Shown: piece after piece, positions 32,169 to 32,245 of the stretch
Numbering within the stretch: position 1 is the first letter of the stretch
Layout of the letters: each line of letters starts with the position of its first letter
Assembly: GCF_048403405.1 (NCBI RefSeq)
Contig: NZ_CP183129.1
Source: Escherichia coli
GTDB lineage: Bacteria > Pseudomonadota > Gammaproteobacteria > Enterobacterales > Enterobacteriaceae
DNA length: 64,000 nucleotides
Direction: 5' to 3' (one strand)
Notes under the pieces: generated by a model
What the model saw: the letters and a program-made list of their open reading frames with translations, nothing else
Database searches by the model: none
What the model was told of the DNA's origin: nothing
Made by a program: the position numbers and the translations under genes

Positions 32169-32245
32169 TGGTTGCGGGGGCCGGATTTGAACCGACGACC
32201 TTCGGGTTATGAGCCCGACGAGCTACCAAGCTGCTCCACCCCGCG
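32169..32245 (-). tRNA. metV: tRNA-fMet (initiator), copy nearest the islet; D-loop variant
   Basis: Reverse complement matches E. coli initiator tRNA except one base (window position 32229; tRNA-sense C17 to U); ends in CCA. Confidence 0.9.

Follow-up and report, generated by a model that had tools for sequence, protein, structure and literature searches.

C17U at a Dcm site in the third initiator tRNA gene of an Escherichia coli metZWV array: a probable hotspot mutation rather than a mark of the adjacent islet

The window, by which we mean the whole 64-kb stretch of Escherichia coli DNA analysed here, contains three tandem initiator tRNA genes, and the copy closest to an inserted gene islet differs from the other two by a single base in the D-loop. 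The initial annotation of this DNA had proposed that the variant marks the copy adjacent to the insertion, and the question raised by the locus is whether the substitution is indeed connected with the islet or has an origin of its own. The reading favoured in this work, to which we give a probability of roughly 0.7, is that C17U is a spontaneous C-to-T mutation at a Dcm-site hotspot, recent, recurrent and unrelated to the islet.

Three tRNA genes were detected in the 64-kb window with ARAGORN, all of them tRNA-Met(CAT) genes lying in tandem on the minus strand (Table 1). The array is located between mltA and amiC and is transcribed from right to left, away from mltA, which places the variant in the 3'-most gene. 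The description of three tandem tRNA-fMet genes with near-identical spacers of 33–34 nt, given in the initial annotation, was reproduced exactly, the spacers being 34 and 33 nt long and differing in the length of a T-run, by one T, and in one G/A. All three copies possess the CAU anticodon (ARAGORN), C1 facing A72, with the 1-72 pair flagged as non-standard by cmscan, and the anticodon stem GGGCUCAUAACCC with three consecutive G:C pairs (29-31:39-41), which are a feature of initiator tRNAs (PMC3017606). With the anticodon, the cloverleaf, the C1 x A72 mismatch and the G:C triplet all present, the three genes are bacterial initiator tRNA-fMet genes. They carry G46, as does the tRNA-fMet1 type of metZWV.

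Table 1 Features of the initiator tRNA array, the neighbouring islet and the differences private to the window (positions are those of the window)
Feature	Position	Strand	Basis or description
Initiator tRNA-fMet gene, first of operon (metZ position), canonical C17	32390..32466	-	ARAGORN, Rfam, alignment
Spacer between copies 1 and 2, 33 nt	32357..32389	-	ARAGORN, sequence
Initiator tRNA-fMet gene, second (metW position), canonical C17	32280..32356	-	ARAGORN, Rfam, alignment
Spacer between copies 2 and 3, 34 nt	32246..32279	-	ARAGORN, sequence
Initiator tRNA-fMet gene, third, 3'-most (metV position), U17	32169..32245	-	ARAGORN, Rfam, alignment
Variant base	32229..32229	-	Reads T in the tRNA sense (A on +), against C/G in the two other copies
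Former Dcm site	32226..32230	.	CCAAG here; motif scan, sequence
Terminator-like hairpin with U-run, just downstream of third tRNA	32115..32151	-	Predicted fold, -19.7 kcal/mol, z = -4.5
Five-gene islet between amiC and third tRNA	26862..32090 (approx.)	+	Annotation of the near-identical locus in MS 69-1, 4621 and GN02461
Private difference, ptsP P205P			
Private difference, recC H984Q	14885		
Private difference, recB G7-to-G6 deletion	19258		
Private difference, tRNA base	32229		
Private difference, fucO T192M			

In the alignment of the three tRNA-fMet copies 76 of the 77 columns are invariant; in the remaining one, linear position 17, the first two copies have C and the third has T. According to the Rfam tRNA alignment, the variable base is the first of two D-loop insert nucleotides found between positions 16 and 18. 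These two nucleotides are Sprinzl 17 and 17a, so that the variant base is 17, a numbering based on the Rfam alignment and on the known tRNA-fMet sequence. The alignment bears out the earlier reading of A instead of G at about 32229 as a change of C to U at about position 17 of the islet-nearest copy; that reading described the position-17 change correctly but missed the Dcm-site context of the base.

The changed base is the inner C of a CCTGG pentamer on the tRNA-sense strand, which has become CTTGG, and the pentamer encodes C16-C17-U17a-G18-G19 of the D-loop. The equivalent sites in the other two copies, at 32337-32341 and 32447-32451, read CCAGG/CCTGG, and both these copies and the related genomes examined at 32229 retain the ancestral CCTGG. 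A C-to-T change at the inner C of CCWGG is the classic hotspot of 5-methylcytosine deamination, and events of this kind are textbook ones.

The islet adjoining the U17 copy contains genes coding for a PRD-domain protein, a PTS EIIC component, a MalY/PatB protein, a KpsF/GutQ-family isomerase and a phosphoglycerate dehydrogenase, a content resembling that of a sugar-utilisation locus; no integrase is annotated among the five genes in the near-identical loci. In genomes lacking the islet the match to the window begins at position 32167, 2 nt past the 3' end of the third tRNA, and amiC is found about 74 nt after that tRNA. The hairpin at 32115-32151 sits in sequence absent from the islet-less genomes; it emerged by folding only, as a simple promoter/terminator scan of the region 32000-32700 returned nothing. 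The tRNA flank appears in at least three downstream haplotypes, with matches beginning at query position 11, 44 or 68. In AR_0017 (locus 701-1477) there is another insert beside the metV-position tRNA, which starts a type VI secretion cluster (tssB); the flank of the third tRNA accordingly hosts alternative islands in different lineages.

Six complete genomes, namely 4621, TUM1226, TUM14771, GN02461, MS 69-1 and OX030728, are near-identical to the window; no complete RefSeq genome identical to it was found, these six clone-mates being the nearest. Over 12,001 bases that take in the islet, both GN02461 and MS 69-1 coincide with the window, with the only exception of position 32229, where they have G. 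The same G, corresponding to C17, is present in the clone-mate 4621 and in the more distant 50579417, which possesses the islet in a locus about 99.4% identical to that of the window. The search of 5,426 genomes with a 191-nt query that runs from the terminator through the variant tRNA and the spacer gave no exact match, and each of the best 60 matches had one mismatch. Since C17 is found in clone-mates with an identical islet locus, U17 would have arisen after the islet, and C17U appears to be a recent, strain-private and derived change, later than the islet acquisition. This SNP is the sole difference from the closest genomes over 12 kb.

Over the 64 kb the window differs from MS 69-1 in six SNPs and one indel, and in the first 50 kb five differences are private, being found in the window but in neither MS 69-1 nor 4621 (Table 1). 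Only one of the 199 Dcm sites in the 64 kb differs between the window and MS 69-1, and the other window-private SNPs are not located at Dcm motifs. The G-run at 19258 consists of six G residues in the window and of seven in MS 69-1 and 4621, the two clone-mates read there, and this one-base deletion splits recB (about 18359-21900) into ORFs 18350-19339 and 19150-21900, being either a true frameshift or a homopolymer assembly error. The private H984Q change in recC concerns the same enzyme complex.

The exact 77-nt U17 allele was found in 124 of 5,425 complete E. coli genomes (about 2.3%). The allele is therefore not universal in E. coli, a state that the initial annotation had named as one in which it would be uninformative, and the opposite idea, that it is unique to the window genome, was rejected as well on account of the 124 carriers: it is unique only among genomes with the same flank. 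The placement of U17 was read in 14 sampled carrier genomes of the 124, and in all 14 it occupies a single copy. Four of them have it in the metZ position (203740, 14EC033, 90-9280 and KSC207), two in the metW position (C5 and AUSMDU00014361), four in the metV position (7/2, WCHEC4533, NMBU-W10C18 and AR_0017) and four in metY, the unlinked locus upstream of rimP-nusA (90-3040, 2013C-3492, 2013C-4830 and 2012C-4227). A phosphoglycerate-dehydrogenase gene lies beside the array in KSC207 and AUSMDU00014361, amiC is adjacent in the first three of the metV-position carriers, and a T6SS gene is near the array in AR_0017.

The four metY carriers are separate complete-genome records whose flanks differ at no more than 1 of 1,477 positions, and U17 is accordingly real and inherited in at least this lineage. 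All four have G46 in metY and not the A46 of K-12, and give three initiator-tRNA matches per genome compared to the usual four (the median for E. coli genomes), which suggests a two-copy metZWV array. Taken with the window strain, the four gene positions demonstrate five or more independent origins of U17. Its presence in the third copy is an ordinary polymorphism, and no description of C17U in initiator tRNA genes was found in the literature.

Two other changes in the same pentamer, C16U and G18A, were used as controls, exact-match genomes being counted in the same way as for C17U. The change of C16 to U, which concerns the adjacent C, not methylated by Dcm and also located at a variable D-loop position, gave six genome matches, two of which represent the same genome; its carriers include the reference strain ETEC H10407 / SEC470 and four others. 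The change of G18 to A, which is the product of 5-methylcytosine deamination on the opposite strand, was found in one genome, 14EC017, in the metZ position. The excess of C17U over C16U is about 20-fold in genome counts, although the 124 carriers include clonal groups, so that these are counts of genomes and not of events and 124 versus 6 overstates the ratio of rates. G18 is a universally conserved tRNA base, and the near-absence of G18A presumably results from purging by selection; the 124:1 asymmetry between C17U and G18A nevertheless mixes selection on G18 with a possible strand bias. The 124/6/1 pattern fits a hotspot at C17 that is tolerated, and a G18 that mutates as readily but at a cost to the cell.

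Of 5,426 complete E. coli genomes, 5,358 possess the dcm-vsr pair. According to the mechanism proposed here, the inner C of the D-loop CCTGG would be methylated by Dcm in the window strain, and the resulting 5-methylcytosine at C17 would deaminate to thymine. The operon is very highly transcribed and the tRNA-sense strand is its non-template strand, which might thus be subject to extra deamination; transcription-associated deamination of cytosines on the non-template strand may add to the asymmetry described above. The T:G mismatch would sometimes escape very-short-patch repair by Vsr, for which T:G mismatches in CTWGG/CCWGG, derived from deaminated Dcm-methylated C5meCWGG, are a substrate (PMC2715241), and would then be fixed as CTTGG. 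The same change has arisen repeatedly, in any of the four E. coli initiator-tRNA genes, and U17 would persist as a probably neutral variant owing to position 17 being variable and unpaired and to the three canonical copies that remain.

As to the function of the variant tRNA, the Rfam tRNA score is 61.4 bits for all three copies (the gathering score is 29), their equality being due to the location of the variant base in an insert state, and for both the C17 and the U17 alleles the cloverleaf is the minimum free energy structure with the same value of -30.3 kcal/mol. Structural damage to the U17 tRNA was rejected on the basis of these unchanged values. The scan with a 39-nt U17 context, performed on one genome per species, gave at least 120 stretches, and among the matches listed at least 48 of 129 tRNAs from other species are 77/77 identical to the U17 allele. 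The genera with such tRNAs are Vibrio, Shewanella, Photorhabdus, Xenorhabdus, Providencia, Edwardsiella, Pectobacterium, Brenneria, Dickeya and Aggregatibacter, and Enterobacter sp. Ag1 is also found among the 77/77 matches listed. In the species from which the scan recovered several copies, e.g. Vibrio breoganii, V. variabilis and Providencia vermicola, each of these has U17.

Being the native initiator tRNA of other species, the U17 molecule is a normal initiator there, and for the variant copy expression, aminoacylation and formylation may be expected by analogy with the native initiator tRNAs to which it is identical. Initiator-tRNA levels track gene copy number (PMC3017606), and two canonical initiator copies are retained in the window, with metY also present in other E. 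coli genomes, so even a mild defect of the U17 tRNA would be buffered. It is almost certain that the U17 tRNA is functional, and the opinion of the initial annotation that a change at D-loop position 17 probably leaves the tRNA functional gains support from the equal Rfam scores, the equal folding energies and the native U17 elsewhere. The E. coli enzyme DusB acts specifically on U17 (PMC11602153), and the variant may therefore gain a DusB-made dihydrouridine (D17).

The idea that the substitution came with the insertion, or was caused by it, and so marks the insertion-proximal copy has in its favour that the U17 copy adjoins the islet and that homology with the islet-less genomes ends within 2 nt of the tRNA 3' end, but it is extremely improbable in view of the rest of the data. 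All four related islet-bearing genomes read (GN02461, MS 69-1, 4621 and 50579417) have C17, the metV-plus-flank query is matched exactly in none of the 5,426 genomes, the islet has no annotated integrase, and 60 nt separate the junction from the variant base, which belongs to the 5' portion of the tRNA. Moreover, in the islet-bearing KSC207 and AUSMDU00014361 it is the metZ or metW position that carries U17, whereas the islet-less 7/2, WCHEC4533 and NMBU-W10C18 have it in the metV position, and it is also found in metY. An integration scar or marker in the 3' att segment was rejected as well, given the 60 nt separating the base from the junction and the occurrence of U17 without the islet and in other copies. 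The comparison with metZ, metW and metV of other E. coli genomes, which had been put forward as a check on the proposed marking of the insertion-adjacent copy, thus gave U17 at all positions, with or without the islet, and this, together with C17 in the islet-bearing clone-mates, overturns that proposal; U17 has neither a causal nor a marker relation to the islet. Very unlikely, too, is a selected variant (e.g. one providing a new D17 modification or altered D-loop/T-loop dynamics) or an import by gene conversion from foreign DNA with native U17. The action of DusB on U17 (PMC11602153), the recurrence of the allele in E. coli and the existence of donors, U17 being fixed in many Gammaproteobacteria with an otherwise identical initiator tRNA, would agree with such an origin, but in each of the 14 sampled carriers U17 is confined to a single copy and has not spread to the rest of the array, its frequency is as low as about 2.3% of genomes, no structural effect is predicted for it, and the 12,001-base comparison revealed none of the flanking changes expected of an imported patch. 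A hotspot is also the simpler account of the recurrence.

It is unlikely, though less so, that the three copies are in fact identical and that the T is an assembly or base-calling error, that is, a consensus error at a Dcm motif within a 110-bp tandem repeat beyond the reach of short-read polishing. When default ONT basecaller models are used, some 70% of the errors in nanopore consensus sequences occur in CCAGG/CCTGG, followed by errors in homopolymer length (PMC6591954), and modification-induced nanopore errors are mainly C-to-T and G-to-A (PMC11610603). The window-private differences include both types, the Dcm-motif change and the recB G7-to-G6 deletion, and the four related islet-bearing genomes read all lack U17, with a mismatch in every one of the best 60 flank-query matches. 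Against this, a single affected site out of the 199 does not resemble systematic Dcm miscalling, the other private SNPs lie away from Dcm motifs, the same allele is inherited in other lineages, and errors blind to selection in a palindromic motif should not produce a C17U to G18A ratio of 124:1. Genomes 14EC033 (U17) and 14EC017 (G18A) come from one sequencing project and both have their change in the metZ position (701-777), which could be a hint at a project-specific base-calling artefact in some of the database instances. Whether the change is a real mutation or an artefact, the Dcm motif is its cause and the islet is irrelevant.

An extension of the hotspot mutation may also be considered, which we put forward tentatively and regard as somewhat unlikely: deamination would regenerate U17 again and again, and Vsr repair, including that of gene-conversion heteroduplexes between the array copies, would restore C17 and with it the Dcm site, U17 being possibly the ancestral state. 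If this were true, the distribution of C17 and U17 across Gammaproteobacteria would track the presence of Dcm/Vsr and not tRNA function, and the initiator pool of the carriers would be mixed, containing a D17 species that depends on DusB. For the hotspot mutation itself, the locus is a naturally occurring case, of little wider biological weight, of a Dcm-site hotspot within an RNA gene that is essential and present in several copies, in which the contrast of 124 (C17U), 6 (C16U) and 1 (G18A) separates mutational bias from purifying selection. In practice, a lone CCWGG SNP in a tandem tRNA array is no marker of nearby insertions and may be a methylation-related assembly error.

Compared with known systems, the locus is the metZWV operon of E. 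coli with a minor allele of the third gene, an allele already present in 124 public genomes. As in the E. coli metZWV and metY loci, there are three tandem initiator genes between mltA and amiC, the fourth being upstream of rimP-nusA; the initiator polymorphism described there is, however, G46/A46 between metZWV and K-12 metY (PMC3017606), whereas the third copy of the window differs at C17, and in the window lineage the five-gene islet separates this copy from amiC. The locus resembles the tRNA-gene-associated islands at metV in that the third tRNA is directly followed, at its 3' end, by variable DNA, but the SNP lies outside the junction-proximal 3' segment and does not co-occur with the islet, in which no integrase is annotated.

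The classic Dcm hotspot cases are known from protein-coding reporter genes such as lacI and cI, whereas here the site is inside a multi-copy tRNA gene, and G18A is almost absent. With the Dcm/Vsr hotspots the change shares the C-to-T transition at the inner C of CCWGG, giving CTWGG, and its recurrence in independent lineages (PMC2715241). Finally, the variant tRNA of the window is 77/77 identical to that of the native-U17 Gammaproteobacteria, in which all the recovered copies have U17, in contrast to one copy of three in the window and one copy in each of the 14 sampled E. coli carriers.
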